NCBI GenBank assembly: GCA_964019425.1
Contig: OZ025796.1
Location: 620,001 to 684,000, forward strand
DNA from: Flectonema sp. DT1601
Taxonomy: Eukaryota
Direction: 5' to 3'
DNA: 64,000 bases
Part shown: one piece after another, positions 30,295-56,159 of the stretch
How positions within the stretch are numbered: the stretch's first letter is position 1
Layout: each line of letters opens with the position of its first letter
Notes under the pieces: generated by a model
Database searches by the model: none
What the model saw: only the letters and a program-made list of their open reading frames with translations
What the model was told of the DNA's origin: nothing
Program-made: the position numbers and the translations under genes

Positions 30295-33200
30295 ATGTTG
30301 CCACGCAACGACACGGAGCTTACCAGCAGAATGGTAAAGGAACATCCCAATGGGACAGCTCCGGGGAGCTACGCGGAGGCTGGGCCTGGAGCACTCACGG
30401 TGTCGTACTCGGGGAGTGGACACGACGTGTTTGGCGAAGGGACAGCTCCAGGGAGCTGTGCGGAGGCTGGGCCTGGAGCATTCACGGTGTCGTACTCGGG
30501 GAGTGGACACAACGTGTTTGGCGAAGGGACAGCTCCGGTGAGCTATGCGGAGGCTGGGCCTGGAGCACTCACGGTGTCGCACTCGAGGAGTGGACATAAT
30601 GTGTTTGGCGAAGGGACAGCTCCGGGGAGCTACGCGGAGGCTGGGCCTGGAGCACTCACGGTGTCGTACTCGGGGAGTGGACACAAGGTGTTTGGCGAAG
30701 GGACAGCTCCGGTGAGCTATGCGGAGGCTGGGCCTGGAGCACTCACGGTGTCGCACTCGAGGAGTGGACATAGTGTGTTTGGCGAAGGGACAGCTCCGGG
30801 GAGCTACGCGGAGGCTGGGCCTGGAGCACTCACGGTGTCGTACTCGGGGAGTGGACACGACGTGTTTGGCGAAGGGACAGCTCCAGGGAGCTGTGCGGAG
30901 GCTGGGCCTGGAGCATTCACGGTGTCGTACTCGGGGAGTGGACACAACGTGTTTGGCGAAGGGACAGCTCCGGTGAGCTATGCGGAGGCTGGGCCTGGAG
31001 CACTCACGGTGTCGCACTCGAGGAGTGGACATAATGTGTTTGGCGAAGGGACAGCTCCGGGGAGCTACGCGGAGGCTGGGCCTGGAGCACTCACAGTGTC
31101 GTACTCGGGGAGTGGACACGACGTGTTTGGCGAAGGGACAGCTCCAGTGAGCTACGCGGAGGCTGGGCCTGGAGCATTCACGGTGTCGTACTCGGGGAGT
31201 GGACACAAGGTGTTTGGCGAAGGGACAGCTCCGGGGAGCTGTGCGGAGGCTGGGCCTGGAGCACTCACGGTGTTGTACTCGGGGGGTAGACACAAGGTGT
31301 TTGGCGAAGGGACAGCTCCGGGGAGCTGTGCGGAGGCTGGGCCTGGAGCACTCACGGTGTTGTACTCGGGGGGTAGACACGACGTGTTTGGCGAAGGGAC
31401 AGCTCCGGTGAGCTATGCGGAGGCTGGGCCCGGAGCATTCACGGTGTTGTACTCGGGGAGTAGACACAAGGTGTTTGGCGAAGGGACAGCTCCGGGGAGC
31501 TGTGCGGAGGCTGGGCCTGGAGCACTCACGGTGTCGTACTCGGGGAGTGGACACAACGTGTTTGGCGAAGGGACAGCTCCGGGGAGCTACGCGGAGGCTG
31601 GGCCTGGAGCACTCACAGTGTCGTACTCGGGGAGTGGACACAACGTGATTGGCGAAGGGGCGGCTCCGGTGGGCTGTGCGGAGGCTGGGCCTGGAGCACT
31701 CGCGTTGGTGCCGTACTCGAGGAGTAGACACAATGTGTTTGGCGAAGGGGCAGCCCCGAGGAGGTATGCGGAGACGGGGCCTAGAGAACCCACGCTCGTG
31801 TCGTACACGAGGAGGGGGCACAGCCAGTCGAAGACAAACCGCACACTAGGGGCAGGGAGTGAGACGGCATCAACGCGGGGGCCTGGGATGAACACGACAA
31901 TGGCACACGAACAGGAGTATACAAAGAGGTGGCGGGCCATGTTGGAATTAGAGATACTCAGGGATATGCCGGGTCTAGGGACACATATGGCAACAGGAAT
32001 ATTACCGTCTTTAGCATGTCAAAAACTGGAGCCCACGATATGGTTATTCCCTCAGCCAAAGCTAGTGGGTTGTGCGGGAACGAATGAGACCGAGAGGTAT
32101 CAGGAAGAAATCACGCAACAGGTGAGGGGGCCAAACCGGGCGAGCGACAGGTGGAGACTGAGTCCACCAGCGCGATGGCACAAGAAACAAGAGAAGAAGC
32201 GGGAAAAGGCCCGGAAAACGAAAAGTGGGGGACGAACAAAGGAAGAGAGAGCGCCGGAAGATGAACAGTCGACGTCAAAGCCGAGAAGCAGTTGCAAGCA
32301 GCAGCCCCACGAGATGAGAGGTGGGGGTGCGAGCTGCCCAGTGTGTGAGTGGTCTGGGACGGAGAATGGCCTGCTGGCACACATAGATGGGAAGCATAAA
32401 GGTCAATTGGGACAGGACCAGTGGGCTGACTGCGGCATGAAGGCGTGCGGACACTGCGGACGAGCAATGAAGGGGACGGCCAGTATGCACCCAAGGTGTA
32501 GGAAGTTGAGCAGCTCCAGAGAGGTGGAGGGGGAAGCAACGCCAAGCACGTCCATAGAACTACAGAGGGAGTTCCCGAGAGTCAGTGTAACCAAGACTAA
32601 GGGGGATGGGGACTGTATGTTCCGAGCAATCCTACTGGCGAAGGGAGAATGGAATCGGCGAGTGGGTGCGAGGGTGCTGCGGAAGAGACTCGCGGAATAC
32701 ATGAGAGGTGAAGAGAGGACGGACCAATGGTTCGTCAACGGACTGGCCAAGGAGGACTACGCTGTACGACTGGAGAACAAGGGATGGGGGGACAACGTAG
32801 CGCTGCAGGTTGCGGCGGACCAGATGGGAGTAGTGATCATAGTGTGGGAGGCGGGGAGACTCCTAAAGATGCTGCCCCTGAGAAGGACTGAGGACATCCC
32901 GCTGTGGATAGTGCTGGATAAAGAACACTACGAGGCAGTGCTCCAAGCGGACGCCGAAATGCTCAATCGGGTGGAGGAGAGAGCCGAGGCGGTGTATGTG
33001 CTGAAGCTCTCCGAACAAACGGCTGAAGAGGCTGCGGTGAGGATAGGCCTGGGGACGGGACCAAGCGCGGGACTGAGGGGGTCTGGGCCTTACTACTGCC
33101 CCAGGGGAGAATGCTCGCGATCACGCGCCCAGCGATTTGAGGGATATAAGAACTGGGGAGGACTATTAGGCCACTTGAACAAGGAGCACCTCCTGTCAGA

Positions 33201-36200
33201 TCGCCCTCTCACGGAGGCGGAGCAGCAGGCGATGGGGGTGCGACCATGCACGATGTGTGGGTGTCTGACGGGAAGCAGCACCGGGGTCCACCCGAGATGT
33301 AGAGAAGCCATGGCGCTAGATGGGGGGGAGGAAGAGGTTCAGAACGCCCCGTGGCCAGACGAAAAAGAGCTTGGAGAGCTGCCGTCGTGGGAGGAGATAG
33401 GGGCGGCACAGGTAGTGGTGCCAAAAAAGTTGGACGAGAGGCTGACGATGTTGTGGGCGAGAGCTCTCATGGCAACATTGCAACGGATAGCACAGCGGAA
33501 TGACCCGCGGGCATGGAAGCTGCTATTGATGCTCCCGAAAGCATGCCTGGGAACGCCGGCGGTGCGGAAGGATGAGAAGGGGACAGAGACGCATAGGGAG
33601 AGGCTGACGAGCAGGCTGGAAGGATGGCTGAGGGGAGAGTATGTAGCGATGTGGAGCACGAGGGCAAAGAGGAACAAAAGACGACGGGAGAAGGAAACGA
33701 CACAGGGAGAACGGTATGAGCGGTGCTGCGCCCTGAGCAGGAGAGGGAGGTACGCGCAGGCTAATAAATGCCTGGTGTCGAGCGGGCTAGCGCCGAACGC
33801 GCCGGAAGTCCTGGCGGCGATGCAGACCATCCACCCGAGTCCCATGCACGAGAAGATAGACCTGGAGGGGGTGAGAACGGGGAACACAGTAGTGTCGCCG
33901 GAGGAAGCACTAGCATCGCTGAAGACATTCCCGAAGGACACGGGGGCCGGACCGTCGGGATTAAGCGTGGAGCTCCTGAAGCAAGCGTGCGACACGGGAC
34001 TGCGAGGGTTGATGCCAACGCTCTGCACTACATTAGAGCTACTGGTAAGAGGGAAAGTACCTTATGAGGCGGCACCGGTGTTGGCAGGAGCTCGCCTGAT
34101 CGCGCTGAAGAAAGAGCCGACCGGGTATAGACCAATAGCAGTAGGGGAATCACTGCGGAGGTGGGCGTGGAAGATAGTGCTAGCAAAAATAAGGCCCAAG
34201 ATACCAAACCTCTTAAAGCCAGGAGGACAGCTGGGGGTGGCGGTACCCAGTGGGGTGGAGGCGGTGTACGCAATAGTACGGGACTACGCGAGGAGGAACA
34301 GGGGGGCCAACAAGGCAATCCTGACCATTGATTTTGAGAACGCTTTTAACTGTGTCTCGAGGGCGGTGTTCCTGCGTGAGCTGGCGTCCACGCTGCCGGA
34401 ACTGTTGCCTTTGGCATCGTGGTGTTACGAGAGACCGACGAGCCTCTTTTTTGAGGATACCACGATTCCGTCGAGGGAGGGGGCCCAACAGGGGGATCCG
34501 GCGGGGCCTCTCCTTTTCTCACTCGGGATAAAAAGCCTACTGGAGGGACTCAAGAAGATGGGACTGGATGGAAGCCTCTGGTTCTTAGACGATGGAGTGT
34601 TGATGGGAGGCGTAGACGAACTAGCGAAGGCGTACGACTACCTGGTTCAAAAGGCATCAAGCCTGGGGCTAAAGGTAAAGGAGGCGAAGTGCGTATTCGT
34701 ACCTCTGCGGGTGGGCCTGGAACCGAAGGGGGGCTTGGAGAAGGTGAAACAAGAGTCCGAGGGAAACTTCACCATTCTCAAGCTACCGGTAGGGAGTGGG
34801 AGCTACTGCAAGGAATACCTGCTGCAGTACGTGACGAAGCTGAAGAAAGTAAGCGAGTCACTGACGATGCTACCGGATCGGCACGTAGCGCTGACCCAGC
34901 TACGATACTGCCATTCGTATGGGAAGATGGTATACTTGATGAGGTCAATGTACCTGGAGGACCAGCGATCAGGTCTGGCAGATTTCGATGCGGTGGTGAG
35001 AAGCGTGTTGCGGGGTCTCGTGGGTGGGGATATGGATGAGCGGGCGCACTTACAGGCGGAGCTACCTTTGCGGGAAGGGGGGGTGGGCCTGCGAAACTGT
35101 GGGAGACACGCGGCGGCGGGCAGAGCAGCGTCGGCCACTGCGACGAGGAAACTGTGCGTGGAGCTGGACGCCCAATACCAAGTCGACCCTGAGGAGTGGA
35201 GTGGGGTGTGTAAAGCGCTGACGCTGGAGACCTCGGAGGAGTGCGACCTGGACCTCGATAAGGTAGTGCGACAGAGAGAGCTGTCAATGAAGATCGACGC
35301 CTCGCTGAAAACGAAGATGGTCAACGACCTGAAGGGGAGCGGAGACCGAGAAAGACTTGCACACTTCAGAGCGGTGTCCATGCCGAGGGCGAGTGCGTGG
35401 TTGGCGGAGGCAAGCGACACGGGAACCGTGATGCCGTCGCAAATTTTCCGGACCGCGATCAGGGCGCACTTAGGGCTGGAGGTCTTACAGGCGGGACAGC
35501 TATGCAAGAGGTGCAACGCTAAGCTAGACCCTCGGGGGGTGCACGCAGGGATGTGTAACCGGGGGGCAACGCCAACCATACGCCATAACCTAGTCAGGGA
35601 TTTCCTGGCGAAGCAGGCAAGGGTGACGGGGATGTCCGTGGAAATGGAGCCGCAACGAATCCTAGATGGAGGGAGGAAACCGGCCGACATCCTGGTAAGC
35701 GAGGCAGTGCCGGGAACGACACGAAACTGGACAGGAAGACCGGCGGCGTACGACGTGACGGTCATCGAGGTATGCTCGCAGACAAGTCTGTCCCGGGGAT
35801 CGCACTTGGATGCGAGGCGGGTCATCCAGGCGAAGGAGAGGGAAAAGGTGAAGAAATACGGGGAGGAGTGTAGCTCGAAGGGAATAGCTTTCGTTCCTCT
35901 AGTCTTCACGCGCGACGGGGCCATGAATGAGGCAGCTGCGGCCTTCATCAAGGCGATTTCTCTGAGGACACGGAGACCGGCAGAGGCGTGGAGGGCACTG
36001 TCGAAAGAGATATCAACAACGCTAGCGTATAGCTGGGCGAGAGCGGTCGAAGATAGGGGGGAGTTGCTGATGGGGGGCGACGGAGCACCTATCAGTACGG
36101 ATCTACCCCCGATATTCAAGGAGGATGAGTGGGAAGACGAGATACAAGACCTGGTCGACAAGATGGGGAGCATCGGGGAGGGGCCAGACGAATCGGGGCG

Positions 36201-39200
36201 GTTACTGTCGGAGGCCGACCGGAGTGTGGGAAGGACTACCAGACCGGACGCTGCGCCGGAGATTGGCCAAGCCGCAAGAGATAGCACACAGAAGGCAGGC
36301 AACCAGAGGGAGGTGCAAGCCCCGGAAAGCGGGACGAGGTCCACCCTGCAGGAGCCGAAGGAACTGGAGCAGACTCACGGAGGGGCAGGGGAGCCGGGGG
36401 AGGCACGAACGGAGGAACCGTCAACTGAGGAATCTGGAGTCGGAGGGAGGACGCCGGCGGAGGGACCAACTCCGGACCGAGGGAACGCAATCACGGAGCC
36501 TTCACGAGCTGAGGGACCGGGACCCACGACGAAAGAGACAGGACGGTTGCCGGGCGCCCCGGTGGTGAAGCTGGTAGTTTCGGAAGGCAAGCCAGGAAGT
36601 GTTCCAAGGTTCAAAGGACATGGCAGAGATGTGATGGCCCAGCTAGAGCGAGATATGGCGGACCTAGACATCACGAAGCGGCCGTTATTGTCCTACGAGG
36701 CGTCGGGAAAACAAGATGACAAGTGGGCCACATCGGATGTGAGGGGATTTGAGAACACGAGAGGGACGTGCTACGCCGCAGCAACAGTCTGCAGCCTAAT
36801 ATGGGCCACACCACTAATAGGGTTGATGAGAGAGAAAGAAACGGCGGATAAAACGTGCGTAGGGGGATGTCTCGCCTGTGTACTGTGGAAGATGTCTAAA
36901 GAAGACCACCCAAGACTGGACGGGTTAATGGAGGAGACACGAGTCACGATCCAGGACTTCACGGCGGACACGGTCAGGAAGGAGATAACAAGGTATTCTT
37001 TGGCAGGAGGTTCGCCATTGGCTTTCCTTAAACAGATCCTAAATAACCTGGCACTGAAGGAGTGCGCGGTGTGGGGGGGGACTCTGAGGAGCCTGTTCGA
37101 ATCCAGATTGAAAGCGACACACAGGTGTGTATGTGGGTTTGTGAGGCAGGAGGTGCAGCTGAGTTTCATGGTCTTGGACCCAAAGACCAAGCCGGAGACA
37201 GCAAAGATCATCCTCTTAGGAGGGCCGCTCGAAGAAGAGACGAAGAGTCCAACGATCTGCGAGAGGTGTAGATCGCCAAACAGAGACTGCACTGTGCAGT
37301 GGAGATTCGCCGAGATGCCGCCGATCCTGTTCGCGAAGGAGAGAGTGGAACAGACGACGAGGGCCGCCTTTCAGGTAGAGACTGAAAGCGGGCCACGCAG
37401 TTATGTTTTAACGGGGAGTGTATGTGGCAATGGGAGACATGCAATGACAATGGTAAGAACGCCGAGGAACCGATGGGCATGTGTGAGCGACGAACGGGTG
37501 CAGAGCAAAGAAGGACCAGGCACGGGGCCGCTTTATTGGGTGTATACGAGAATCGAAGGAACGGAGGGTCTGTTAAGTGAGAAGCTCCTCTCCATAGACC
37601 ACCGCATGCGGACAAGCCGAGCACTGAAGCCACGCCCAATGGACGATAAATCGGGACGAGCGAGGCGGTGGTACTTTGACCAAAAAACACAAGTAGCGAA
37701 GGAGGCGGTGGTAGAAAGGAGGGAAGAGCCAGTTCTGCATGTGGAAAAGCCGAGGGCAGAGCAACCACCATCCCCGTCGGAGCCGAAACCTTTGGAGCCA
37801 GCATCAAACGGAGACATTGCGAAACTGACGCAAGAGACGAAGGAAGAGCCACCAGTACAAACTAACCGCTCCAAAGGGGACGGTGGGCAGCAGGCGCTGC
37901 CGCCGCCCCAGCTGCTCAAGTCTGAGGCGCGGAGTCCAGAGCGGGCAGAAGGCTCAACAACGGAACCAATGCGAATGGACGGGAGCGACCAGACTAAAGA
38001 CGTCACCGAACCGTCGGCGGGGATAGGATTGCACGCAGGAGGGAATTACTCGGACACATCCCTGTCGCTATCGGAACCGCCGCCTGTGAAACCCCACGGA
38101 AATGTCGAGACTTTGGAGCCAGCATCAAACGGAGACATTGCGAAGCTGACGCAGGAGACGAAGGAAGCGCCACCAGTACAAACTAACCGCTCCGAAGGGG
38201 ACGGTGGGCAACAGGCGCCGCCGCCGCCCCAGCTGCTCAAGTCTGAGGCGCGGAGTCCAGAGCGGGCAGAAGGCTCAACAACGGAACCAATGCGAATGGA
38301 CGGGAGCGACCAGACGAAAGACGTCACCGAACCGTCGGCGGGGATAGGATCGCACGCAGGAGGGAATCACTCGGACACATCCCTGTCGCTATCGGAACCG
38401 CCGCCTGTGAAACCCCACGAAAATGTCGAGCGGATGCCACAGGGACTGAGTGCGGTGCCATTGACGCTGTCAAAGCAACCGGAGGACCAGGATAGACGAC
38501 AGACACCGCCGGCTCCCCAGCAGTCCGTATTAAAACTACAAGAAACAGGACAGGATTTGCTACAGGTCCCGGTGAAAGTAGCCGAGCGGTCGAAAGAACC
38601 GGAGGCGCCGCCTGCGGTAAAAGAAGAGTCGAACCTGCCGGCGAGGAACCTTTCACCACCGGTGTCTATTTCAACACCAAGCCAGGACGTGCGGACGCCT
38701 ACGCAGCCGTTGCGTGATCCCGAGCAGGGAGAACCGCATGCACTTGTGAAACCGACAGAGGGCGCACAGACGCAAGCGAATGGATTGGTTTCAGAAGGAG
38801 CAGCCCCACAGAAGAGCAGAAGGGAGCCGACAGAACCTAAGACGTCTAGGGAGCAAGGTCTAAAACTGGGCTTTTACGCAACAGGACCGACCACGTGGGA
38901 GACAGCACCGTGGGAAGGAGAGCAAGACCCAGAGGAGGCCCAACAAAAGAGGGAGCCACTGGTACCACAGGAAGCAAACGCTCGGGAGGAAGACCGCGAG
39001 GGATATGACGAACCGACAGCGCGTGGAACAGACGGAGGAGCTGATGTACAGATGGAGAACTATGAGAGCCAGGAAGGGGCGAACTCCCAGGAACTAATGG
39101 AGGAAGTTACAGGGGAGATTGCCGAAACGAGCGAGCCGCTAGCGTATGGAATGGATGAAGGGGGTGATATACTCATGGAGGACTGTGAACCGGAATCAAA

Positions 39201-42126: not shown

Positions 42127-42538
42127 GAAGCATGAAACGGAAAGTGAATGAACGGAAAAAATTAAATGTAAAGAAGTGAACTTGTAAAAAATGTAAAGAA
42201 GCAAACATGTTAAAAGAAAAATGAAAAAAAAAAAAAAAAAAGAAGAGTGAAAAGGAAGACAGAGTTGTATGTAAACTGTATGTAAATGTAAGAAGAAAGA
42301 AAAAACACGCTGGAAGTGGGAGTGCAACCATCAGCGCAAACACAACCACAAATATTGTTTTTTTTTTTTTCCTTTTTCTTTTCTTCGCTTCGGCGACAGA
42401 TATGGTAGGACCTAGAAAACCGGCCCAAAACTTGTGTTGCAGTTTATCTTTTTAGCGCACACTCATGTAACATAAGGATCGCTGGTTCCGAGGGTTTGCT
42501 CTCCTGCCATACTTGCCTCTCACCTCCCTCAAAAAAAA

Positions 42539-42577
42539 AACCAACGATTCTAAAGCTACAGTTTCTGTACTTTATTG
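42539..42577 (+). other. Second complete 39-nt spliced-leader exon
   Basis: Identical to 29271-29309; follows the RLE-1 poly(A) and is joined to the first 462-bp unit. Confidence 0.92.
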
Positions 42578-45535
42578 TTTTTCCCCTCCCTCGCCCCATC
42601 CCCGTCAGCGAGTAGGAAAGCGCAGCTAGGAATTTTTCCACGCAAGCGGATCCCACAACCCGACCACCCTTCCCCACGCTCACCCCATCCACCCTCCCCC
42701 ACCCCAACAAAAGAAGAAAACGGCGGCAGCCACGTGACACACTCGTGTTCGTGTAGCGAAGCGTTTCGGCGACTTCGAAGACGACGACGACGACGACGTA
42801 GAAGTGACGGTGTATGTGACTGACCTTCTTCTTCCTTATTTATTTGTTTACTTTTGTTAATTACTTCCTCTTAATTTCATTCCTCTCTTAGATTGTTGTT
42901 TATTTGCTTATTTATTTGTTTGTTTATCTGTCTGTTTATCTGTCTGTATATTCTGTTACTATCTGTTATTTTGTTACATTTATCTGTCTACTTTAGAGTA
43001 CATTTTTGTTATTGTTAAATTAAAACATCTTCTTCACAGTTTTTCCCCTCCCTCGCCCCATCCCCGTCAGCGAGTAGGAAAGCGCAGCTAGGAATTTTTC
43101 CACGCAAGCGGATCCCACAACCCGACCACCCTTCCCCACGCTCACCCCATCCACCCTCCCCCACCCCAACAAAAGAAGAAAACGGCGGCAGCCACGTGAC
43201 ACACTCGTGTTCGTGTAGCGAAGCGTTTCGGCGACTTCGAAGACGACGACGACGACGACGTAGAAGTGACGGTGTATGTGACTGACCTTCTTCTTCCTTA
43301 TTTATTTGTTTACTTTTGTTAATTACTTCCTCTTAATTTCATTCCTCTCTTAGATTGTTGTTTATTTGCTTATTTATTTGTTTGTTTATCTGTCTGTTTA
43401 TCTGTCTGTATATTCTGTTACTATCTGTTATTTTGTTACATTTATCTGTCTACTTTAGAGTACATTTTTGTTATTGTTAAATTAAAACATCTTCTTCACA
43501 GTTTTTCCCCTCCCTCGCCCCATCCCCGTCAGCGAGTAGGAAAGCGCAGCTAGGAATTTTTCCACGCAAGCGGATCCCACAACCCGACCACCCTTCCCCA
43601 CGCTCACCCCATCCACCCTCCCCCACCCCAACAAAAGAAGAAAACGGCGGCAGCCACGTGACACACTCGTGTTCGTGTAGCGAAGCGTTTCGGCGACTTC
43701 GAAGACGACGACGACGACGACGTAGAAGTGACGGTGTATGTGACTGACCTTCTTCTTCCTTATTTATTTGTTTACTTTTGTTAATTACTTCCTCTTAATT
43801 TCATTCCTCTCTTAGATTGTTGTTTATTTGCTTATTTATTTGTTTGTTTATCTGTCTGTTTATCTGTCTGTATATTCTGTTACTATCTGTTATTTTGTTA
43901 CATTTATCTGTCTACTTTAGAGTACATTTTTGTTATTGTTAAATTAAAACATCTTCTTCACAGTTTTTCCCCTCCCTCGCCCCATCCCCGTCAGCGAGTA
44001 GGAAAGCGCAGCTAGGAATTTTTCCACGCAAGCGGATCCCACAACCCGACCACCCTTCCCCACGCTCACCCCATCCACCCTCCCCCACCCCAACAAAAGA
44101 AGAAAACGGCGGCAGCCACGTGACACACTCGTGTTCGTGTAGCGAAGCGTTTCGGCGACTTCGAAGACGACGACGACGACGACGTAGAAGTGACGGTGTA
44201 TGTGACTGACCTTCTTCTTCCTTATTTATTTGTTTACTTTTGTTAATTACTTCCTCTTAATTTCATTCCTCTCTTAGATTGTTGTTTATTTGCTTATTTA
44301 TTTGTTTGTTTATCTGTCTGTTTATCTGTCTGTATATTCTGTTACTATCTGTTATTTTGTTACATTTATCTGTCTACTTTAGAGTACATTTTTGTTATTG
44401 TTAAATTAAAACATCTTCTTCACAGTTTTTCCCCTCCCTCGCCCCATCCCCGTCAGCGAGTAGGAAAGCGCAGCTAGGAATTTTTCCACGCAAGCGGATC
44501 CCACAACCCGACCACCCTTCCCCACGCTCACCCCATCCACCCTCCCCCACCCCAACAAAAGAAGAAAACGGCGGCAGCCACGTGACACACTCGTGTTCGT
44601 GTAGCGAAGCGTTTCGGCGACTTCGAAGACGACGACGACGACGACGTAGAAGTGACGGTGTATGTGACTGACCTTCTTCTTCCTTATTTATTTGTTTACT
44701 TTTGTTAATTACTTCCTCTTAATTTCATTCCTCTCTTAGATTGTTGTTTATTTGCTTATTTATTTGTTTGTTTATCTGTCTGTTTATCTGTCTGTATATT
44801 CTGTTACTATCTGTTATTTTGTTACATTTATCTGTCTACTTTAGAGTACATTTTTGTTATTGTTAAATTAAAACATCTTCTTCACAGTTTTTCCCCTCCC
44901 TCGCCCCATCCCCGTCAGCGAGTAGGAAAGCGCAGCTAGGAATTTTTCCACGCAAGCGGATCCCACAACCCGACCACCCTTCCCCACGCTCACCCCATCC
45001 ACCCTCCCCCACCCCAACAAAAGAAGAAAACGGCGGCAGCCACGTGACACACTCGTGTTCGTGTAGCGAAGCGTTTCGGCGACTTCGAAGACGACGACGA
45101 CGACGACGTAGAAGTGACGGTGTATGTGACTGACCTTCTTCTTCCTTATTTATTTGTTTACTTTTGTTAATTACTTCCTCTTAATTTCATTCCTCTCTTA
45201 GATTGTTGTTTATTTGCTTATTTATTTGTTTGTTTATCTGTCTGTTTATCTGTCTGTATATTCTGTTACTATCTGTTATTTTGTTACATTTATCTGTCTA
45301 CTTTAGAGTACATTTTTGTTATTGTTAAATTAAAACATCTTCTTCACAGTTTTTCCCCTCCCTCGCCCCATCCCCGTCAGCGAGTAGGAAAGCGCAGCTA
45401 GGAATTTTTCCACGCAAGCGGATCCCACAACCCGACCACCCTTCCCCACGCTCACCCCATCCACCCTCCCCCACCCCAACAAAAGAAGAAAACGGCGGCA
45501 GCCACGTGACACACTCGTGTTCGTGTAGCGAAGCG
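42578..45535 (+). repeat. 462-bp tandem array (6 full units plus 186 bp); each full unit has a GTATGT donor and a T-rich tract ending in CAG
   Basis: Unit starts at 42578, 43040, 43502, 43964, 44426, 44888 and 45350; units appear identical. Confidence 0.95.
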
Positions 45536-45888
45536 CTTAGCGCTTTAAAGTCTTTTAAGTCGCAGAAGTCGCCCCCGTCGCCCCCCGACCCCCACAGGGT
45601 ATTGAACCCAGGTGGACCAGAAGACAGACGGTGACAAAAACCACTGCACCAAAGTATATTGTTGAAAAAAAATTTTTATTTATTGTTTATTATATATATT
45701 AATTAGGTCATATTTATTTAGAAGAATTTGGTATTACTTGTCGTTGTTTATTTAGAAAATACTAAGGAAGAAAGAGGAAGAAAAAAAAAAAAAAAAAAAA
45801 AAAGAAATTAGATTTTGCATAGGCATACTTGCAGAGGAGGAGATAAACGCGGGTCCTTCAGTAAGCTCTAGTACATCGGCGGGGTAGG

Positions 45889-45930
<42 letters not shown>

Positions 45931-46475: not shown

Positions 46476-46634
46476 GACAAAGCGTTACGAATCAGCCTGC
46501 GGGAGAGGAGAAGGAAGAACTCTCTCACTAGCTTTGTTTGGTGCCCGTGGTGGTGACTACCATTCTGCGTCGGAACTGTACGGGGGTGACCGCATAGACA
46601 GAAGAGTTCGGAAAGCGGAGGATACGCGAGCCAG

Positions 46635-46687
<53 letters not shown>

Positions 46688-46798
46688 ACTCCACACACAC
46701 GTACAGGGCTAACAAGGAGAAGAGCAGGTAAGTCGATTGTCTTTTTTCGGGTTCCATACACAAATCATCCACAGCGAAGAGAACGGAAAAGGAAGAGT

Positions 46799-46844
<46 letters not shown>

Positions 46845-46847
46845 AGA

Positions 46848-49800
46848 ATGGAGAAAACAATGTTACTGTGTGGGTACGTGCTGCTGTGGGCACTACTAAG
46901 TGGAACGAGGGCGCAACAGACGTCCGGAGTGGGTAAGCAGAGGTTAGCCCCAGTGCCAGGCGGATGGCACACCCCTCTTTTCACAACGCTGGACAAAGGC
47001 CCACTGTTTTCATCGCGCATCAGCCGACGCGTAACACGCCCGATCCCCCCGCACCCATTTATAACCCCCAACAGCTCAAACAGCCCCAACAATACGGCAA
47101 GCGGACGCGCTTTCCAACATGGACGAGAGGGGGTGTGGGTCCCGCGGAGGGGAACGGAAACGGCCGGGAACCGGGTGAGGCGAGACCACCCAAAGCCACC
47201 TCCAGACAAGGGAGGAAGGGAGCTCCTGAAGAGGGCGTCCCCGAAAGTGGCGTCCAAGGCGGCAAGGCGGCTGGAAAGGAGGAGGAGGAAGCTGCTGAAG
47301 GAACGGCAGGAGAGGTGGGAGCGGTGGGCGGGAGAGTTGGAGAAGTTCCACGCCAGGCGAGAGAGGTTCCGCGCGGAGACAGAGAGGCCAAGGAAGAACA
47401 AGGCGGAGACACCGAAGAAGCGACGGGCAGGGCCCGAAAGGGACTGGACAAAGCCAGGAGGGCACAAGGCGGAGCCCAGACCATGGTATGCGAGGCCGTC
47501 AGACCTGGCAGGAGGAGGGCAAAGCAAGGAGAGGACGAAGTGCCCGGTGGTGGGGTGCAGCGTCTGGGTGAGGGGTGACCTAGAGTACCACTTCAAACAA
47601 CACCTGAAGGGAGTGGTACCGGGGGAGGTAACGGCCCAGATGGCATCCGACAGACTCGGAAAGCAGATCTGCAAGGCCTGCGGGGAGCTGAGTACCGGAT
47701 TGGTGCACCAGACAGTGAGGTGTCGGGAGATGTTGGACCTCAAGGGACGGCTGGGGGTAGCGACGGGACCCACGCCGGAACTGGCAAGCCTGAAGTGCGA
47801 GGGAGCAAAAGTATTCCGGGTGATTGGGGATGGGAATTGCCTGTTCAGGAGTGTGTGCCAACTCCTAGAGACGCCAGAGGGGTGGAAGGGCAGACATGGA
47901 GAGCTCCGCAGGAGAACGGCAGGATACCTGACCAAGAACAGGGAAAGGTTCGAGGTCTTCTTCCAGGACGCGGACGCATTCGGAGTATATGCGAGGGCGT
48001 TGGAAGAGGATGGATGCTGGGGCGATGCATTGGCCCTACAGGTCATGGCAGAGGACCTACAGTGCCGCTTCGTCGTCGTGGTGAGGACGGAAACGCTGGT
48101 GGTGGAAGGGCCATCGGACCCGAAGCGGACGCTGGTCTTGACCCTGCAAAACGGGTGCCACTACGACCCAGTGGAGGCATCCGAGGACTGCGTCGCGCGG
48201 CTGCTACAGAGCGCCCGGAGGTTGGAGTTAGTGTCGCCAGGCCCGCTGTCGCAAGCAGCAGGAGGCGAGCCGGCAGTGCTGCAGACAGCCTCCCGACAGG
48301 CCCAGCTGCACGAGTGCCCCCAAGCGGAGTGCCCGAAACACAAGGGAGGCTTCGAGGAGTGGGCGGAGCTCCTAAGACACGTGGACGAGCACGCATTCAG
48401 TGGCAACCCGCTGACGCATGGACAGTTGGCGAGGCTAGGCCTCCGGGAATGTCCGGTGTGCTGTGGGATCATCGGGCAGGACCAGCCGATGCATCCGGGG
48501 TGCAGTGAGAAACTGCAGAAGGTCCAACTGGGGGACGTGTACACGGCGTTCCGGAAGCGGGTGCTGGAGAGCCAGAGCTTCCCCTCTTTGGAGGAAATAG
48601 CCAGCAGGAGGAGGCCGATAGCGAAGAAGCTGCCGGTGTCCCTGTTGCATCATCTGGGGCGAGCACTCAAGCTGTCGCTCGACCTAGTCGTGGAGCGGAA
48701 CGATGAGTGGGCATGGAAGCTGCTCTTGATGCTCCCGACATGTACACTGCGGAGGATACGGAGGGGGGGTAGGAGGTTGTCGACCAGCGATCTGACAGGG
48801 GCGGTCGACGACCTGCAAGCATGGATTCGGGGGGAATTTGAGGGACTGTGGAAAGCGGCGGCCCCCCGCAAGGCGACGGGAAGGCCAGCAGTGAAAGAGG
48901 CGGGGCAAAAAGGAAGGAACGACAGGGCCACGTCGCTAGCGAGGGAGGGTTGCCTGTCACAGGCGATCTCGGCCCTAGACGCGCCGCCGCCAGCAGAACG
49001 AACCGAGAAGGTGCTGGAGCAGATGCGCACCCTACACCCGAGGGCGAGCGGACCCCCATCGGCCACGGCAGGGCAGGAGGTGCAGATAGCAGAGGTGGAG
49101 CTGCTAGCATGCCTACGCTCCTTCCACAGGGGGTCGAGTGGAGGGCCTTCGGGCCTCGCGCCGCAACACCTGAAGGACGTGGTGGAGCGGGGTGAGGTGC
49201 CGGGGCTGGTAGCCTCGATCACGGAGGTGGTGAGGATTCTGGCGAACGGGAGGGCGCCGCGGGAAGTAGCGCCGCTGCTGGCGGGGGCGAACCTGACGGC
49301 GCTGGAGAAAGAAGGGAAGCCGGGGGAGCACCGGCCAGTCGCGGTGGGGGAAACATGGAGGCGGCTGGTGGCGAAGATCCTGTGCGGGGCATATAGGTCC
49401 CAGGCGAGGAGCTCGTTGCTAGAAGTGAGACAGCTGGGAGTAGCGGTGTCGGGGGGAGTGGAGGCGGCGGTGCACACCCTGCATGAGTTCCGCGCGGAGC
49501 ACGCGCTCTCGTCACAGAAAGTGTTCGTGAAGATAGACTTCTCGAACGCCTTCAACTGCGTGAAGAGGGGGGCGTTCCTGGATTCGACGAGGGATACCCT
49601 GCTGGAGAGCTGGGTCAGCTGGTGTTACGGAGCGCCGACGTGGTTGCTGTTTGGGGACGAGAGGCTGAGCTCGGAGGAGGGCGCTCAGCAGGGGGATCCG
49701 TTGGGTCCCTTGCTGTTCTCGCTGGCAATCAAGCCGGCGCTGCAGAAGGTGTTGGAGGCGAAGCCGGAGTTGGCGTGCTTCTACCTGGACGATGGGCTGG

Positions 49801-52800
49801 TGGCGGGCACCCTGGAACAGGTAGACAAGGCCCTCCAAATCCTGCAGAAGGAGACGGCGGAGCTGGGGCTGACGCTGAGGCCGGACAAGTGCCAGACGCA
49901 CGTGCTCGACTCAGCCCAGAACACCCTGCCCTTGGGGTGGGGGTTGGAAGGGATGAGACCCCCACTGTACAACGGGGACTTCCTGGGGGCACCGTTCGGG
50001 ACGGAGGAACACTGCCAGGAGTTCGTCGACAGGAAGGTGGCGCAGCTGGAGAAGAAAGCGGAGCTGCTAGCTGACCTGCAGGACCGGCAGGTGGCCATGG
50101 TGCTCCTAAGGCAATGCATGGGCTTCTGCAAGGTGACCCACCTGATGCGATGCTGCACGCATGGGAAAATGGACACCTCGATGCGGAAGGTGGACGAGCT
50201 GATGAGGTCCACGGCGAGCCGAGTGTTGGGCCTGACACTGGAGGGGCCAAAGTGGATGCAAGCACAACTGCCGACCCGGATGGGGGGATTGGGGCTGCGG
50301 TCATGTGCAGAGCACAGGGGAGCAGCACTATTGGGATCCCTGGAATTAGTCCAAGGGGTGAGCAAGTCACTGTGGGAGGGGTTCAAGGGGGTGCTGATGC
50401 CAGCACTGAAGAAGGGGTTGAACCTCGCCCTCCCGGAGGAGCTAAGGATAGAAGAAGACGGGCCGGGGCCGAACCCCCAGAGGCTGTCCTCGGCGAAACT
50501 GGACCAGGTCAAGAGAGACTGCCTGCTGGCGGGGGCGAATGACCCGCGCGATAAAGGGAGGCTGCTCTCCCTGCGCATGGATAAGGCGAGCGCATGGCTG
50601 CAACAAGCAGATGAAGAGTGCGCGATGGACCCAGAGACGTTCAGGATCGCATGTGGGATGCGATTGGGCGCAGCGCTGTTCGCGGAAGGGGCAGTATGCA
50701 GGATATGCTCAGGCCCACAGGATAGGCAGGGATACCATGCCTCAATCTGTATCAAAAACGGCCACGTGCACCAGCGACACGAGAGGGTGAAGGAGGAGTT
50801 CATCTCCATCTTTAAGCAGGCGGGATTGCCGCTGCTGAGAGAACCCAGCCACCTACTGGGACCCAACAAGCAGAGACCGGGGGACTGGTACTGCCAAGAG
50901 GGGCTGAGGGAGGGGAGAGGCAGAGCCTTCGACATCACAGTGGTAAACCCGGGGAAGATTAAATTGTATAAAACCCCGGGGCAAGCCGCGAGAGAAGCAG
51001 AGTCCCTGAAAGGGAACAAGTACGCGGAGCAGTGCACGAAACACGGGATTAATTTCTCGACAATTGCGCTGGAAGCGTACGGAGGGATGGGACGGGAAGC
51101 AGTGGGGACCCTGAAGAAGTTGGTGCAGATCTGCGCAACGAACTCGACGGTGCCACACCGGGAGATCGCGGGGGAGATGGCGAGGAGGATCTCGACATCG
51201 GTGGTAGTGGCGACGGCGGAAGCACTGAGAGCGAGGGAGGCGTCGGTGGCGATGGACTCAGTGAACCCATTGCCAAGGACGAAACCGCCGCCCGAGATGA
51301 CGGAGAAGCCGACATCACAAGAGAGAGAACCAAGACCGAGAGCGGAAACGGAAGAGATCCAGCAGCCGGAAGTAATGCGACAGTCGGCAGGACCGCCCCC
51401 GACGATGAGAGGTTTGCCGAACATCGGGAACTCCTGCTACCTCAACGCGTCCGTACAGTGCCTGCTGAAGGGCACGGCACTGACACAAGTGCTGACGGGG
51501 AAGGAGGAAGTGGGGATGTCGGGCCTCCTGAGTGGAGTGGTCAAAGGGAGTGGGGAGTGCCTGGAGAAGCTGTCCGAGATGTTCGACCCGCTACAAGACA
51601 GGCGGCAGGGGGAGGTAGTAGGAACCCTGACGTCCATAGTAGACGCCCTGTTGGAGGAGAAGAAAGAGGTGTGCGAACCGTTGTTCTCGGCAGTACAGCT
51701 GAAACAGCTGGTCTGCACGGGATGTGCGGACGCCTCCGGATCGACGGATGAGTTGACGCTGATCCCACTGTGTGGCCGTACACCACAAGTGAGGCTTCAG
51801 CCGACGAAGGAGAGAGTCGAGCGGTCCTGCGAGAAGCTGTGCGGCAGCAATGAGGCCACGCTGGAAGAGAGTTTCGCCTCGCTCCCAAGCTCCTTGATCT
51901 TCCAGAGAGACAAGCAGGACACGCAAGGGTCCTTGGGATGGGAAGAGCGCTTCCAGGTGCAGGTCGGGGAGAGGGTGATGACGTACCAGCAAACGGGAGC
52001 GATCGCACACCTCGGGAGTGACAACGCGGGGCATTACGTGTCATACACGTGGGACGGAGTAGGCTGGCAGAAGCAAGACGACAAGGCAATAAGCCAAGTG
52101 TCGACAGAGGAGATCCACGGGACGAAACCAGTAGTAGTGGTCTACTCGAGGGTGGAGGGATCGACCCAAGAGGACGTCGGGGTGCCGGTGAGATGGATTC
52201 CGGTGGCGAACAAGGACCGGATGGAGGTACGCGAGGCACCGCCGTCGGAGGAGGACACCGCGGGGTACACGTCCAGGGAAGAGGCGGAGTGTGTCCTCCG
52301 GACGCGAGTAGTAGGGGGGCAGACGCAGCGCAAGCTGCTCTTACTGGTATCGAGCGTCTGGAACGCGGAGATGGAGAAGCTGGGGGCGGCAGCATGCCTG
52401 ATACACATGGGAACGCTCGACAGGAGGTTCACGTGGTCGGGCTGCCTACCGACATGGGACGAAGCGACTGCGGAGTACGTGGCAGCGCTGCTAGGGCTCA
52501 ACGCGATCAGGGAGAGATCGCAACTGCTGGGGGGTGAGACACAGATCGAGGTGGTCACACCGCAGCAGGGGTGGGGAGCCGAGCAGCAGGAGGCGCTGAA
52601 GTTGGTAGCGCTCCCGTCGGTGATAGAACACCAGGTGACGGAAAGCTCACGAGGGGTGGAGAACCTGGCCCTCTGGGAAGCGGAATCGGCGGCATGGGAC
52701 GAGCCGGTGGAACTCTCGGAGGACGGGCTCGACTACTTGGTGATCGAGCTGGAGATGAATCTGGGGCTGTCCCAATTGAGGGGAAAGGCGGTGGAACCGG

Positions 52801-55370
52801 ATGAATCCCAGTCGCTCCCAGGAGGGTCGACGGCATCAGGCGAAGACAGACCACGAGCCGAAGCGCCAGCCCAGGTGGAAGCGCAGACGACGGAAGCACA
52901 AGGAGCGGAAGCAGTAGGGCTGAGAGACGAGCCAGCACAGGAAGTGGGACAACCCGAGGAAAAAGAGCCCCCATCCCCCGACCCCCCGTCGAAGGAGGAG
53001 AAGCTGTATGCGGTGGCGGTGGGATGGAAACCGGGAGTGTATGCATCGTGGGAGGAGGCGAAGGCACAGACGGAAGGGTGCCCGAATGCGACACACCAGA
53101 GTTTCTCCTCCAGGAAGGAGGCGGACAGGTTCGTAGAGAGGTGGCAGCCGGAGACCAGGGAACCGACCCGGGCCACGGAGGGTGTCAGCCCACGTAAGTG
53201 GTACGCAGTGGCGAGGGGCAGGGCGGTAGGCCTGTTCCAATGCTGGAACGAGGCGAACTCGATGGTGTCAGGCTACGCGGCGGCGAGACACAAGAGTTTC
53301 GCAAGCAAGGGGGAGGCGGAGGGATACCTCCAAACCCACCTGCTGGGGGAGGTGGTTGGCGAAGTAGGGACGAGGTACACCTTGGTGTACGCATGCGAGG
53401 AAGACCCGGTAACGGGCCGTCTGGGGGCGGCGGCGAGCTGGTTGGACACACACCGTTTCGAGGTGTTGGGCACATGGTCAGCTGGCCTGCCAGCGGGAGA
53501 CACACACTGGGGGCGATACTTCGCAGCCCTGGTGGGGCTGGTAGCGGCCAAGGCGTGTGGAGGCCTCGTCCCAGCGGAGGCATCCCTGCTGCTGCGAGGA
53601 AGCACGACACACTGGTCGACGGACCAGAGAGAGGTGCTGGAGGAGGCGGAGTTGATGGGGAGGCGTACGACGCTGGTGGAGATGCCAGAGAGGATGAGAA
53701 CACACGCGACGGAGGAGGCTGAAAAAGCGGCGAAGGAGGGCTCGACCTCAGTGACGGAAGCCGTGATGAAGGTTTTCACAGAGGGGGCAAAGAACTGCCT
53801 GGGACACGGGACACAGACGGGTCCCTTCACGGTGCGGTGGGAGGGAAGACAACTGCGTCTGGAACCCCAGTACACAGAAGAGGGGACGGGATCGTCAGGC
53901 GGCCGAGAGTCGGTGGAAGGAGAAGACGCGAGGGTAGAGGGCCGAGACGAGCAGAGCCCGGTCCCAACCCCGAAGGGGGCCGTGCAAAGGGTAGAGGCGG
54001 GAGTCCTGGAGTTGAGCTCGGAAGGGTCGGAGGGAGATGACGATAGATCATCCTCCCCAGCGACAGGGCAGGACGAAGGGAACGGTTCCATGTCGGGAGG
54101 CTCCTTGGGGAGTCCAGGGACGTCGGACATGGAAGTAGAAGAACAGACGGACGAAAGGGACCAGTCAGTAGACCCGTCGGCAGCAGAGACCTCAGGCGAA
54201 AACCATCACCTGGCCGAGGACCTGCAAGCCGAGAAGGGGGACGAGCTGGACGAGACGTCCCACCACTCAGGAGAGCCACCGTCGTCAGACGGCATGGACG
54301 GAGTGGAGGGGTTGGAGGACCTGGAAGACTCACAGTCGGAGACGGAAGTCGACGGAGAAAATGTGACGGAAGGGTCAGTAGTCCAGTACGTCGAGGAGAC
54401 GTCAGAGGACGTGGTCCAGGTGGCAGAGTCGGACACAGAGGAGGAGGGATCGTCAGACTCCCAAATGACCATGACGGTCGATGAACAGGAATGGGAAGAG
54501 GGAGCGGCGCCCGAGGGGAACGCAGGTCAGATGGCCTGGATGCTGGGACTACACCCAGAAGGGGGGAACGCGGAAACACGACGGGAGGGCCAATCGGAGC
54601 CCCTTTCAAAGCTGGTGAACTCAGGCGAAACAAAACCAATGGCCGAGAGATCCAGTTTGGGGGCGAAGATGGGACCACGCGCAGTGGGTAGTGACGGGAG
54701 CGGGGAAGACGCAGAGAGATCGCCGGGCACGGTGTCGACACCGAGCACGAGAGGGAGGACGAAGTACAGAAAGGGAATGGAGGAGGAGAGGGAGGAGTGT
54801 GTGTCGCCGAAGACAAATACGGGAAGGGGACGCACGAGAGGCCGGAAGGCAAAGACGGGGGCAAAGGGGGCCGGAAAGGAGGACCCAAGTCCGCAGGTGT
54901 TGCAGGCGGAAATGGGAGAGTCCACCCCGAGCTCAGGTGAACGGCAGGCGAGGAGGAGGTACAGGAAGGGAGAAGAGAGGGAGAGGATAGAGGTTCTCTC
55001 CCCAGACCCGAGCAGGAAAGCGAAGAGGAAGAGACGCAAGCAGAAGGAACCGGAGCCAGTGGAGGGCACCACGAGGGAACAGGCGCCGCGGAGTTACAAC
55101 AGGAAACCCACACTGCGTCGGGTAGGTAAGGGAGACACACCCGACACAATGGGGTACGCACACGGGCCCCCGGGCTCCCTGACCTCGTTCACGGACGCGG
55201 GCGTACGCCCGGAGCCGGCGGAGCGAGACGGACAAGGTGTGGCAGGAGTAGAGTTGGTCACAAGGTCGTCGTCACAGAGTGAGAAAAGCACCCAAGGAGA
55301 GATGAGGGAGAGAGAAGGGGATCCAACGCGAAGGGTCCTGGACTTCTCGTCGAAAGGGGGAAGGCGCTAG
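46848..55370 (+). CDS. RLE element 2 polyprotein (~2840 aa): ZnF - OTU - ZnF - RT - RLE - USP - RNaseH-like - 2x RNase H1 N-terminal - RNaseH-like - acidic tail
   Basis: GDGNCLFRS..WG..HYD; HRPVAVGE, DFSNAFN, GAQQGDP, YLDD; RHE..RPGD..FDITV..ESLKGNKY; GLPNIGNSCYLNA..GHY..QDD; YAVAVGWKPGVYASW and WYAVARGRAVGLFQCW. 3' UTR and poly(A) run to 56157. Confidence 0.9.
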   Translation: MEKTMLLCGYVLLWALLSGTRAQQTSGVGKQRLAPVPGGWHTPLFTTLDKGPLFSSRISRRVTRPIPPHPFITPNSSNSPNNTASGRAFQHGREGVWVPRRGTETAGNRVRRDHPKPPPDKGGRELLKRASPKVASKAARRLERRRRKLLKERQERWERWAGELEKFHARRERFRAETERPRKNKAETPKKRRAGPERDWTKPGGHKAEPRPWYARPSDLAGGGQSKERTKCPVVGCSVWVRGDLEYHFKQHLKGVVPGEVTAQMASDRLGKQICKACGELSTGLVHQTVRCREMLDLKGRLGVATGPTPELASLKCEGAKVFRVIGDGNCLFRSVCQLLETPEGWKGRHGELRRRTAGYLTKNRERFEVFFQDADAFGVYARALEEDGCWGDALALQVMAEDLQCRFVVVVRTETLVVEGPSDPKRTLVLTLQNGCHYDPVEASEDCVARLLQSARRLELVSPGPLSQAAGGEPAVLQTASRQAQLHECPQAECPKHKGGFEEWAELLRHVDEHAFSGNPLTHGQLARLGLRECPVCCGIIGQDQPMHPGCSEKLQKVQLGDVYTAFRKRVLESQSFPSLEEIASRRRPIAKKLPVSLLHHLGRALKLSLDLVVERNDEWAWKLLLMLPTCTLRRIRRGGRRLSTSDLTGAVDDLQAWIRGEFEGLWKAAAPRKATGRPAVKEAGQKGRNDRATSLAREGCLSQAISALDAPPPAERTEKVLEQMRTLHPRASGPPSATAGQEVQIAEVELLACLRSFHRGSSGGPSGLAPQHLKDVVERGEVPGLVASITEVVRILANGRAPREVAPLLAGANLTALEKEGKPGEHRPVAVGETWRRLVAKILCGAYRSQARSSLLEVRQLGVAVSGGVEAAVHTLHEFRAEHALSSQKVFVKIDFSNAFNCVKRGAFLDSTRDTLLESWVSWCYGAPTWLLFGDERLSSEEGAQQGDPLGPLLFSLAIKPALQKVLEAKPELACFYLDDGLVAGTLEQVDKALQILQKETAELGLTLRPDKCQTHVLDSAQNTLPLGWGLEGMRPPLYNGDFLGAPFGTEEHCQEFVDRKVAQLEKKAELLADLQDRQVAMVLLRQCMGFCKVTHLMRCCTHGKMDTSMRKVDELMRSTASRVLGLTLEGPKWMQAQLPTRMGGLGLRSCAEHRGAALLGSLELVQGVSKSLWEGFKGVLMPALKKGLNLALPEELRIEEDGPGPNPQRLSSAKLDQVKRDCLLAGANDPRDKGRLLSLRMDKASAWLQQADEECAMDPETFRIACGMRLGAALFAEGAVCRICSGPQDRQGYHASICIKNGHVHQRHERVKEEFISIFKQAGLPLLREPSHLLGPNKQRPGDWYCQEGLREGRGRAFDITVVNPGKIKLYKTPGQAAREAESLKGNKYAEQCTKHGINFSTIALEAYGGMGREAVGTLKKLVQICATNSTVPHREIAGEMARRISTSVVVATAEALRAREASVAMDSVNPLPRTKPPPEMTEKPTSQEREPRPRAETEEIQQPEVMRQSAGPPPTMRGLPNIGNSCYLNASVQCLLKGTALTQVLTGKEEVGMSGLLSGVVKGSGECLEKLSEMFDPLQDRRQGEVVGTLTSIVDALLEEKKEVCEPLFSAVQLKQLVCTGCADASGSTDELTLIPLCGRTPQVRLQPTKERVERSCEKLCGSNEATLEESFASLPSSLIFQRDKQDTQGSLGWEERFQVQVGERVMTYQQTGAIAHLGSDNAGHYVSYTWDGVGWQKQDDKAISQVSTEEIHGTKPVVVVYSRVEGSTQEDVGVPVRWIPVANKDRMEVREAPPSEEDTAGYTSREEAECVLRTRVVGGQTQRKLLLLVSSVWNAEMEKLGAAACLIHMGTLDRRFTWSGCLPTWDEATAEYVAALLGLNAIRERSQLLGGETQIEVVTPQQGWGAEQQEALKLVALPSVIEHQVTESSRGVENLALWEAESAAWDEPVELSEDGLDYLVIELEMNLGLSQLRGKAVEPDESQSLPGGSTASGEDRPRAEAPAQVEAQTTEAQGAEAVGLRDEPAQEVGQPEEKEPPSPDPPSKEEKLYAVAVGWKPGVYASWEEAKAQTEGCPNATHQSFSSRKEADRFVERWQPETREPTRATEGVSPRKWYAVARGRAVGLFQCWNEANSMVSGYAAARHKSFASKGEAEGYLQTHLLGEVVGEVGTRYTLVYACEEDPVTGRLGAAASWLDTHRFEVLGTWSAGLPAGDTHWGRYFAALVGLVAAKACGGLVPAEASLLLRGSTTHWSTDQREVLEEAELMGRRTTLVEMPERMRTHATEEAEKAAKEGSTSVTEAVMKVFTEGAKNCLGHGTQTGPFTVRWEGRQLRLEPQYTEEGTGSSGGRESVEGEDARVEGRDEQSPVPTPKGAVQRVEAGVLELSSEGSEGDDDRSSSPATGQDEGNGSMSGGSLGSPGTSDMEVEEQTDERDQSVDPSAAETSGENHHLAEDLQAEKGDELDETSHHSGEPPSSDGMDGVEGLEDLEDSQSETEVDGENVTEGSVVQYVEETSEDVVQVAESDTEEEGSSDSQMTMTVDEQEWEEGAAPEGNAGQMAWMLGLHPEGGNAETRREGQSEPLSKLVNSGETKPMAERSSLGAKMGPRAVGSDGSGEDAERSPGTVSTPSTRGRTKYRKGMEEEREECVSPKTNTGRGRTRGRKAKTGAKGAGKEDPSPQVLQAEMGESTPSSGERQARRRYRKGEERERIEVLSPDPSRKAKRKRRKQKEPEPVEGTTREQAPRSYNRKPTLRRVGKGDTPDTMGYAHGPPGSLTSFTDAGVRPEPAERDGQGVAGVELVTRSSSQSEKSTQGEMREREGDPTRRVLDFSSKGGRR

Positions 55371-56099: not shown

Positions 56100-56159
<60 letters not shown>

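Follow-up and report, generated by a model that had tools for sequence, protein, structure and literature searches.

CRE-like retrotransposon families of a likely diplonemid carry OTU and USP deubiquitinase-like domains and a long tail beyond the RLE

RLE retrotransposons insert via target-primed reverse transcription and are generally regarded as compact, with the protein ending close to the endonuclease. They are also under development for gene insertion, and natural add-on modules are therefore of practical interest. Among the closest described systems are the kinetoplastid CRE clade (SLACS, CZAR, CRE1 and CRE2) and the fungal MoTeR, FoTeR and Cnl1, which like the elements reported here have a single ORF with N-terminal zinc fingers, a reverse transcriptase (RT), and a CCHC motif with the RLE. 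In the accessible sections of two papers, these elements are also described with an A tail and internal repeats, as seen here (PMC12278014, PMC12857005), and kinetoplastid CRE elements with insertion within spliced leader (SL) RNA genes (PMC12278014). The Diplonema papillatum genome paper, in the part available, names SLACS-type RTs without analysing them (PMC10161547).

The window analysed here is a stretch of 64,000 nucleotides from Flectonema sp. DT1601 (contig OZ025796.1), and all coordinates refer to it. Two long stop-free frames lie on its plus strand, at 30106-42126 (RLE-1, 4006 aa) and 46713-55370 (RLE-2, 2885 aa), with a GC content of ∼59% versus 44% across the window. A sequence-only reading of this DNA had proposed two highly diverged but intact ORFs sharing the layout ZnF-OTU-ZnF-RT-RLE-USP, with >1300 aa following the RLE. 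The profile searches it called for place OTU, RVT_1 and UCH above the Pfam cut-off in both proteins, together with two Cauli_VI stretches in each; the cores (first zinc finger through RLE) are 30% identical over 1,372 aligned columns, and ∼2,016 aa (RLE-1) and ∼1,370 aa (RLE-2) lie past the RLE. Both the layout and the length of the tail are thus borne out, although that layout lacked the pairs of hybrid-binding domains, the RNase H-like folds, the SL junctions and the copy families. Intactness holds for RLE-2 only, because the window copy of RLE-1 is cut off at its 5′ end within its repeats and takes its ATG from a non-element stretch. The addition of up to 2,000 residues beyond the RLE runs against the compact view of such proteins. 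Our preferred reading, which we judge to be somewhat probable, is that these are two young single-ORF RT-RLE non-LTR families whose products are likely polyproteins, from which the OTU is predicted to free a ZnF-OTU-ZnF-RT-RLE-USP-RNase H-like unit.

The window copy of RLE-1 is a truncated chimera with an SL-capped kinase retrocopy rather than an intact element. Its upstream partner is an intron-less kinase CDS of 306 aa (29343-30263, on the plus strand as are all features of the RLE-1 and RLE-2 loci; Pkinase E 4e-79), a processed copy fused 5′ of RLE-1. A EukProt transcript of Flectonema neradi matches it at 98% identity, which makes that diplonemid or a near relative the likely host. The kinase copy is headed by a 39-nt sequence (29271-29309), identical to a 39-mer at 42539, which we take to be a spliced leader of the euglenozoan type. 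Between the kinase stop and the element is a stretch (30264-30351) with 43% GC versus 64% in the repeats, likely the kinase 3′ UTR, and the start codon at 30295 falls inside it; the first 19 residues of the window protein are missing from three other copies, P0096 and P0098 included. The RLE-1 ORF itself (30352-42126; 99.8% identical to P0090, P0096 and P0098) is 5′-truncated within an array of an 87-bp (29-aa) coding tandem repeat, which has 16.8 units here (30352-31822) versus 24-28 in longer copies. There follow MRGG, a predicted protease cleavage site (32314-32325) preceding the first of two zinc fingers (starting at 32335 and 33097), an OTU with its Cys and His kept (32575-32955; Pfam E 9e-8), the RT (FLDD; 34108-34701, Pfam), and a CCHC knuckle with the RLE (RHN...E...KPAD...D; 35503-35900, end approximate). 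Past the RLE, a divergent USP-a with Cys, His and Asp (36742-37551) and a USP-b with canonical boxes (39319-40071) are joined by a linker that contains a 321-bp in-frame duplication (37790-38430). Beyond these are two RNase H1 hybrid-binding domains (Pfam Cauli_VI; 40408-40740), two units aligning to the RNase H-like units of RLE-2 (40783-41715; catalytic acids missing, fold assigned through RLE-2), and a C-terminal Cys-rich segment that is likely zinc-binding (41896-42050; weak C1_1 match, E 0.049). The end of the 3′ UTR and its 8-A tail (42127-42538) is set by a second copy at 27018-27521 (plus strand), a 5′-truncated, A-tailed RLE-1 3′ end of 0.5 kb that is 96% identical over 519 nt.

RLE-2 (46848-55370; 2840 aa) is full length and 99.7% identical to P0021 and P0029, with a hydrophobic, signal-peptide-like N-terminus and 125-bp repeats upstream. 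A GTAAGT...CACAG stretch at 46729-46775, upstream of the ATG, may be either a short intron within the 5′ UTR or the site of a trans-splice acceptor there. The predicted cleavage site, LAGG (47505-47516), precedes the first zinc finger; the fingers start at 47541 and 48315 and the OTU, also with Cys and His kept, spans 47799-48188 (Pfam E 2e-12). These are followed by the RT (YLDD; 49308-49904, Pfam), a CCHC knuckle with the RLE (RHE...E...RPGD...D; 50697-51150, end approximate), and a single USP (51408-52151; Pfam UCH and PDB matches). The segment at 52260-53747 comprises an RNase H-like unit, two hybrid-binding domains (53001-53132 and 53196-53333, Pfam Cauli_VI) and a second RNase H-like unit, with an incomplete catalytic set. 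The 3′ region (55371-55933) has no A tail and is interrupted, stopping where an APE-RT element begins.

Both proteins belong to clusters of close copies, 35 proteins for RLE-2 and 26 for RLE-1, mostly >98% identical; the comparisons given here rest on the 15 members listed for each. The listed RLE-2 members are 93-99.7% identical, including the near-full copies P0021, P0029 and P0022 at 99.6-99.7% and P0003 with one in-frame deletion, and many of the cluster are fragments with the C-terminus in common. Listed RLE-1 members are 99.2-100% identical, and across six long copies no listed substitution hits a catalytic residue. The near-identity of the copies, the C-terminal, 3′-biased fragments and the A-tailed truncated 0.5-kb copy all point to recent retrotransposition, and RLE-1 and RLE-2 are young multi-copy retrotransposon families, likely of a diplonemid. 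These fragments and the truncated copy, as marks of retrotransposition, also argue against the fusions being artefacts of assembly or gene calling, or domesticated host genes, as do frames that stay open over 12 and 8.6 kb and the presence of the same fusions at >99% identity on several other contigs. Retroelements are indeed densely clustered in the window, where long runs of A occur, and a search of sequencing runs listed a single other run (share 0.06), with no RNA runs among those listed and with matches that are short low-depth pieces, none bridging a junction by the search rule; even so, an artefactual or domesticated origin is largely refuted and we regard it as extremely improbable. 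A 200-nt piece in run X1 is exact to 51411-51610, within the RLE-2 USP, and an exact protein look-up of both window ORFs gave no match for any of three start variants.

Several APE-RT(-RNase H) elements, presumably ingi-like, occupy 9623-26986 and 55934-60926, and a 2A-like DVERNPGP motif lies close to the start of the element at 57021. An RT frame of a different type on the minus strand (61991-64000; Pfam RVT_1 E 2e-8), which we take to resemble tyrosine-recombinase retroelements, runs off the window edge. Between the retroelements are two tRNA-Gly(TCC) genes and several tRNA-like A/B-box stretches (8902-8973, 28243-28314, 27820-27890, 45585-45650 and 61440-61510).

From 28381 to 45535, SL-headed pieces are arranged head-to-tail: a stuttered partial SL with an ORF1-like fragment (28381-29270), the SL-kinase, RLE-1, and an SL-headed array. 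This array (42577-45535) holds 6.4 copies of a 462-bp unit, ∼99% identical and each closing with a pyrimidine tract and AG. The SL sequence immediately past the RLE-1 tail (42539-42577) is placed exactly at the AG acceptor position of the first 462-bp copy. One of the two RLE-1 3′ ends adjoins SL nucleotide 1, on a trans-spliced 462-bp unit and not an SL RNA gene, and no SL adjoins the copy at 27018-27521; the SL core was found in none of 80 related metagenome loci. The RLE-1 junctions and the SL-headed run are compatible both with SL targeting, for the run as insertion at SL 5′ edges, and with template jumping from one SL-capped RNA to another. In our preferred account, the RT would copy and switch onto other SL-capped RNAs, thereby generating the kinase-RLE-1 chimera. 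The available text of PMC7049700 and PMC2663770 contains no published diplonemid SL sequence, and what is accessible of these and of PMC6875170 adds nothing else of relevance.

With regard to the deubiquitinase-like domains, the sequence-only reading had assigned two USPs to RLE-1 and one to RLE-2, all with catalytic Cys and His boxes retained. Two of these assignments stand: the Cys and His boxes of USP-b and of the RLE-2 USP are canonical, both domains score above the Pfam cut-off, and PDB searches match them to human USPs (best E 4.7e-9 for USP-b, 6.4e-7 for the RLE-2 USP). USP-a is below the cut-off (Pfam UCH_1 E 6.7e-4); a PDB search at E≤10 gave three matches, all of them USPs and non-significant (E 0.75-1.9), and blastp against the RLE-2 USP gives E 0.001. 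Structure prediction, which had been suggested as a check, yielded a USP-like model with a pLDDT of 62 that matches USP46, USP12 and USP2 in Foldseek at ∼1e-10, albeit partly circular because the input alignment included USP homologues. From the weak profile match and the predicted fold, USP-a is probably a divergent USP. The catalytic Cys and His are indeed present in the OTU and USP domains of both ORFs, with the His box of USP-a eroded, and an 11-row alignment with ∼20% overall identity shows no variation at the Cys, His and Asp of the USPs. We propose that the USP catalytic cores would have been captured from host genes and that, as deubiquitinases, they may protect the RT complex or its partners against ubiquitin-dependent removal; manipulation of host ubiquitin or protection of the RNP, as had been put forward earlier, is a plausible role for these predicted enzymes.

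The OTU is accompanied by a candidate processing site. In all nine OTU proteins that have upstream sequence, [LM]xGG lies 18-117 aa ahead of the pre-RT OTU, directly before it or before the first zinc finger; P0096 was excluded as a duplicate and P0201 since it starts at the OTU, and in P0106 the motif sits at the called start. The same RT-relative interval contains the motif in none of 27 OTU-less relatives and none of 8 further locus frames, and the background elsewhere in the nine OTU proteins is 0-22% of equal windows. These counts are not independent, because the interval was fitted afterwards and eight of the nine proteins are in one clade (P0216 is outside the tree); five of the nine prompted the idea and four came after. 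The Met of MxGG was considered as an internal start and rejected, since Leu occupies this position in five of the nine. Marafivirus OTU proteases, which are also DUBs, cut their own polyprotein at junctions that mimic the ubiquitin LRGG, as described in the available part of PMC8348309. Because the site tracks the pre-RT OTU and because of this marafivirus precedent, we favour OTU self-processing, which is likely at the predicted [LM]xGG site and would split an N-terminal leader from the ZnF-OTU-ZnF-RT-RLE-USP-RNase H-like unit.

No such site is present in RLE-2 between the RLE and the USP, nor at the matching position in the USP-only relatives; with nothing similar next to the USPs, action in trans would be more likely for these domains. 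It is conceivable, if rather doubtful, that the same applies to the OTU: all of the protease domains would then act solely in trans, their substrates being conjugates of host ubiquitin or ubiquitin-like proteins, and the LxGG would be cut by a host deubiquitinase or left uncut. The USP cores descend from host DUBs with their triads kept, OTUs placed past the RLE mostly have no site (it is present in only one of seven), and the OTU, Ulp1 and C19 domains of DNA transposons were proposed to target host repair pathways (Bao et al., in the sections available of PMC2836005). A purely trans activity does not, however, sit easily with a site that follows the pre-RT OTU so closely (9/9 versus 0/27) despite flanking leader sequence that is not alignable among the OTU proteins. 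The conserved LxGG site makes the role of transposon-borne OTU and Ulp1 proteases, a long-standing question, directly testable.

The leader is best seen in RLE-1 copies P0096 and P0098, which reach ∼460 aa and extra repeats further N-terminal than the window copy. These two longer RLE-1 copies, of 4,614 aa (24 repeats) and 4,730 aa (28 repeats), have a common leader of 462 aa (461/462 identical) with 13 Cys in residues 20-235 that opens with a signal-peptide-like hydrophobic stretch, as judged by inspection and hydropathy. ESM Atlas (lead score 0.92, with only 86 of 256 features shared) and motif inspection suggest a vWA-like domain in this leader; Pfam gave no vWA match in P0096. Hydrophobicity of the leader exceeds that of the rest of the protein in only three of eight leaders (hydropathy window 13). 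We consider it unlikely, though worth stating, that a leader composed of a signal peptide, a Cys-rich and vWA-like adhesion domain and a repeat stalk is cut by the OTU from a DUB-armed RT-RLE replicase and has an envelope-like or surface role. If this were so, the leader could serve vesicle packaging or cell-to-cell spread, and the elements would represent a non-LTR lineage resembling RNA-virus polyproteins.

Downstream of the USPs, both proteins carry a pair of RNase H1 hybrid-binding domains, with a match to human RNase H1 at E 9e-7, and two RNase H-like units. One of these four units, from RLE-2, was modelled using an element-only alignment; its highest-ranking Foldseek hits are RNase H1, with E-values no better than 3e-3, the top three VIA matches are RNase H1 structures (Z 9.0 with rmsd 5.2 and 105 aligned, 8.8 and 8.0), and ESM Atlas agrees with an RNase H-like assignment. 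The strand-1 and strand-4 catalytic Asp positions of the RLE-2 units, read from alignments, are not Asp; the D-E-D-D residues are incomplete and all four units are eroded. Profile comparison of these units with the active RNase H domains of the APE elements in the window gave no match. They are best read as predicted non-cutting hybrid binders, and together with the hybrid-binding domains they may hold the RNA:cDNA hybrid uncut. Retroviruses offer a parallel in their degenerate tether RNase H (PMC5348765, available portion).

We searched with the RLE-2 RT-RLE-USP segment, finding 15,105 proteins from which the best 150 were taken. A local USP profile matched eight among these 150 of 15,105, and UCH follows the RT above the Pfam cut-off in seven of the 150 listed representatives, Pfam having been run on 30 of them picked by local USP profile and length; this rate is enriched because the query itself contained a USP. 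Among metagenome loci found without a USP query, 0 of 80 have an OTU, USP or hybrid-binding domain, although just 1 of 82 RT frames there is long enough to reach 250 aa past the RLE. Intron-based gene-model chimeras were rejected as the source of three of the eight distant RT-USP proteins, which are single ORFs filling their Logan contigs (P0220, P0255 and P0198; 4.3-4.7 kb). Animal USP35/38 is the nearest match for the USPs of P0220, P0255 and P0200 (206-293 summed bits), and USP2 for that of P0240 (E 3e-91); P0198 carries another paralog, its USP differing from that of its sister element P0220. Because of the insect USP35/38 matches, the RT-RLE-USP elements P0198, P0200, P0191, P0203, P0220, P0240 and P0255 are likely arthropod CRE-type elements, in which the USP core directly follows the RLE. 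The extras in the CRE-like P0014, P0012, P0139, P0127, P0132, P0134 and P0254 are a USP before the RT (P0014, 16 members), SLBP with Dam, MLLE, Prim-Pol, and Ulp1 or RNase H.

The USP label requires at least four changes on a FastTree of 156 rows (153 RT cores, with 14 partial hits dropped), and a single USP-bearing clade is rejected with a p-AU of 9e-53 on 30 hand-picked rows; one origin for all USP-bearing elements was rejected on this value. RLE-1 and RLE-2 are within one 12-row clade that includes OTU-bearing relatives (support 97, fast tree) and are not sisters, and a second tree does not resolve the position of RLE-2. The tail they share points either to common descent followed by losses or to an exchange of modules. 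The earlier idea of one special lineage therefore needs amending, in that RT-RLE-USP recurs in distant CRE-type elements with other USP paralogs, whereas the architecture and the USP and OTU identities stand. Repeated capture of different host USP cores by distant CRE-type elements suggests that retrotransposition meets ubiquitin as an obstacle time and again.

A simpler explanation would be that the tail domains are neutral passengers in young copies, acquired via 3′ transduction or template switching. The RT evidently fuses to host mRNAs, as in the kinase chimera, relatives hold mixed extras (SLBP, Dam, MLLE, Prim-Pol, PHD), and both the erosion of USP-a and of all four RNase H-like units and the lack of an OTU or USP in the 80 metagenome loci would agree with it. 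We nonetheless think this improbable: despite an identity of only 30%, RLE-1 and RLE-2 both have the USP, the hybrid-binding pair and the RNase H-like units in frame, the catalytic residues of the USPs (Cys, His and Asp) remain invariant at ∼20% overall identity, and 7/7 distant captures begin at the USP catalytic core right past a linker.

The relationship to the CRE clade is seen in the single ORF with RT and RLE and the N-terminal zinc fingers, and in the 3′ A tail and internal repeats of RLE-1. Kinetoplastid members of the clade are further characterised by a fixed insertion position in SL RNA genes and a target-site duplication. The published strict SLACS/CRE REL pattern, taken from the accessible part of PMC12857005, matched 0 of 19 proteins, both window ORFs included; in these two the CCHC and RLE residues follow one another in order but at spacings outside that pattern, and a relaxed pattern with identical residues in order matches both. 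The best PDB match of the RT is R2 (E 2e-6). RLE-1 and RLE-2 would probably work like a CRE element and are CRE-like by architecture; the RT trees covered unnamed relatives only. In agreement with the earlier claim of novelty, no prior description of this architecture, of a USP-bearing retrotransposon or of LxGG self-processing in a retrotransposon was found in full-text literature searches, although Repbase or Kojima's 2020 review may already list such elements. As far as searched, these are a real, so far undescribed variant of CRE-like RLE retrotransposons.

Comparable modules occur in other mobile elements and viruses, albeit in different settings. NeSL and Utopia are RLE elements with an Ulp1 (ubiquitin-like-protein protease) or RNase H, placed upstream of the RT and with the RNase H catalytic residues kept, according to the available text of PMC4640811; the proteases here are OTU and USP, the RNase H-like folds lie past the RLE, and Pfam found neither Ulp1 nor RNase H upstream of the RT in RLE-1 or RLE-2. 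Ginger, Helitron and Mutator elements with OTU or Ulp1, and the transposase-C19/USP fusion XP_001314237 of T. vaginalis, similarly combine a mobile-element enzyme with a DUB-type domain, although these are DNA transposons rather than retrotransposons, and the accessible part of PMC2836005 describes no self-processing site in them. Tymoviruses and marafiviruses have an OTU within a replicase polyprotein with ubiquitin-mimicking junctions (PMC8348309, in part), as proposed here; they are RNA viruses in which cleavage is demonstrated, while here it is predicted. The Burro giant Gypsy elements of planarians have a similarly giant polyprotein of ∼4,900 aa with ubiquitin-related extra domains, although in the sections available of PMC6431247 these are LTR elements with MATH, BIR and ankyrin domains and not DUBs. 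As for the CRE and FoTeR elements, some FoTeR proteins have a predicted signal peptide, comparable to the leader starts of RLE-1 and RLE-2. However, FoTeR proteins are ∼1,150-1,180 aa versus 2,840-4,730 aa here, no insertion into an SL RNA gene was seen at the two RLE-1 3′ ends, unlike in kinetoplastid CRE elements, and, in contrast to CRE and FoTeR, RLE-1 and RLE-2 carry OTU, USP, hybrid-binding and RNase H-like modules, with 1,370-2,016 aa past the RLE.
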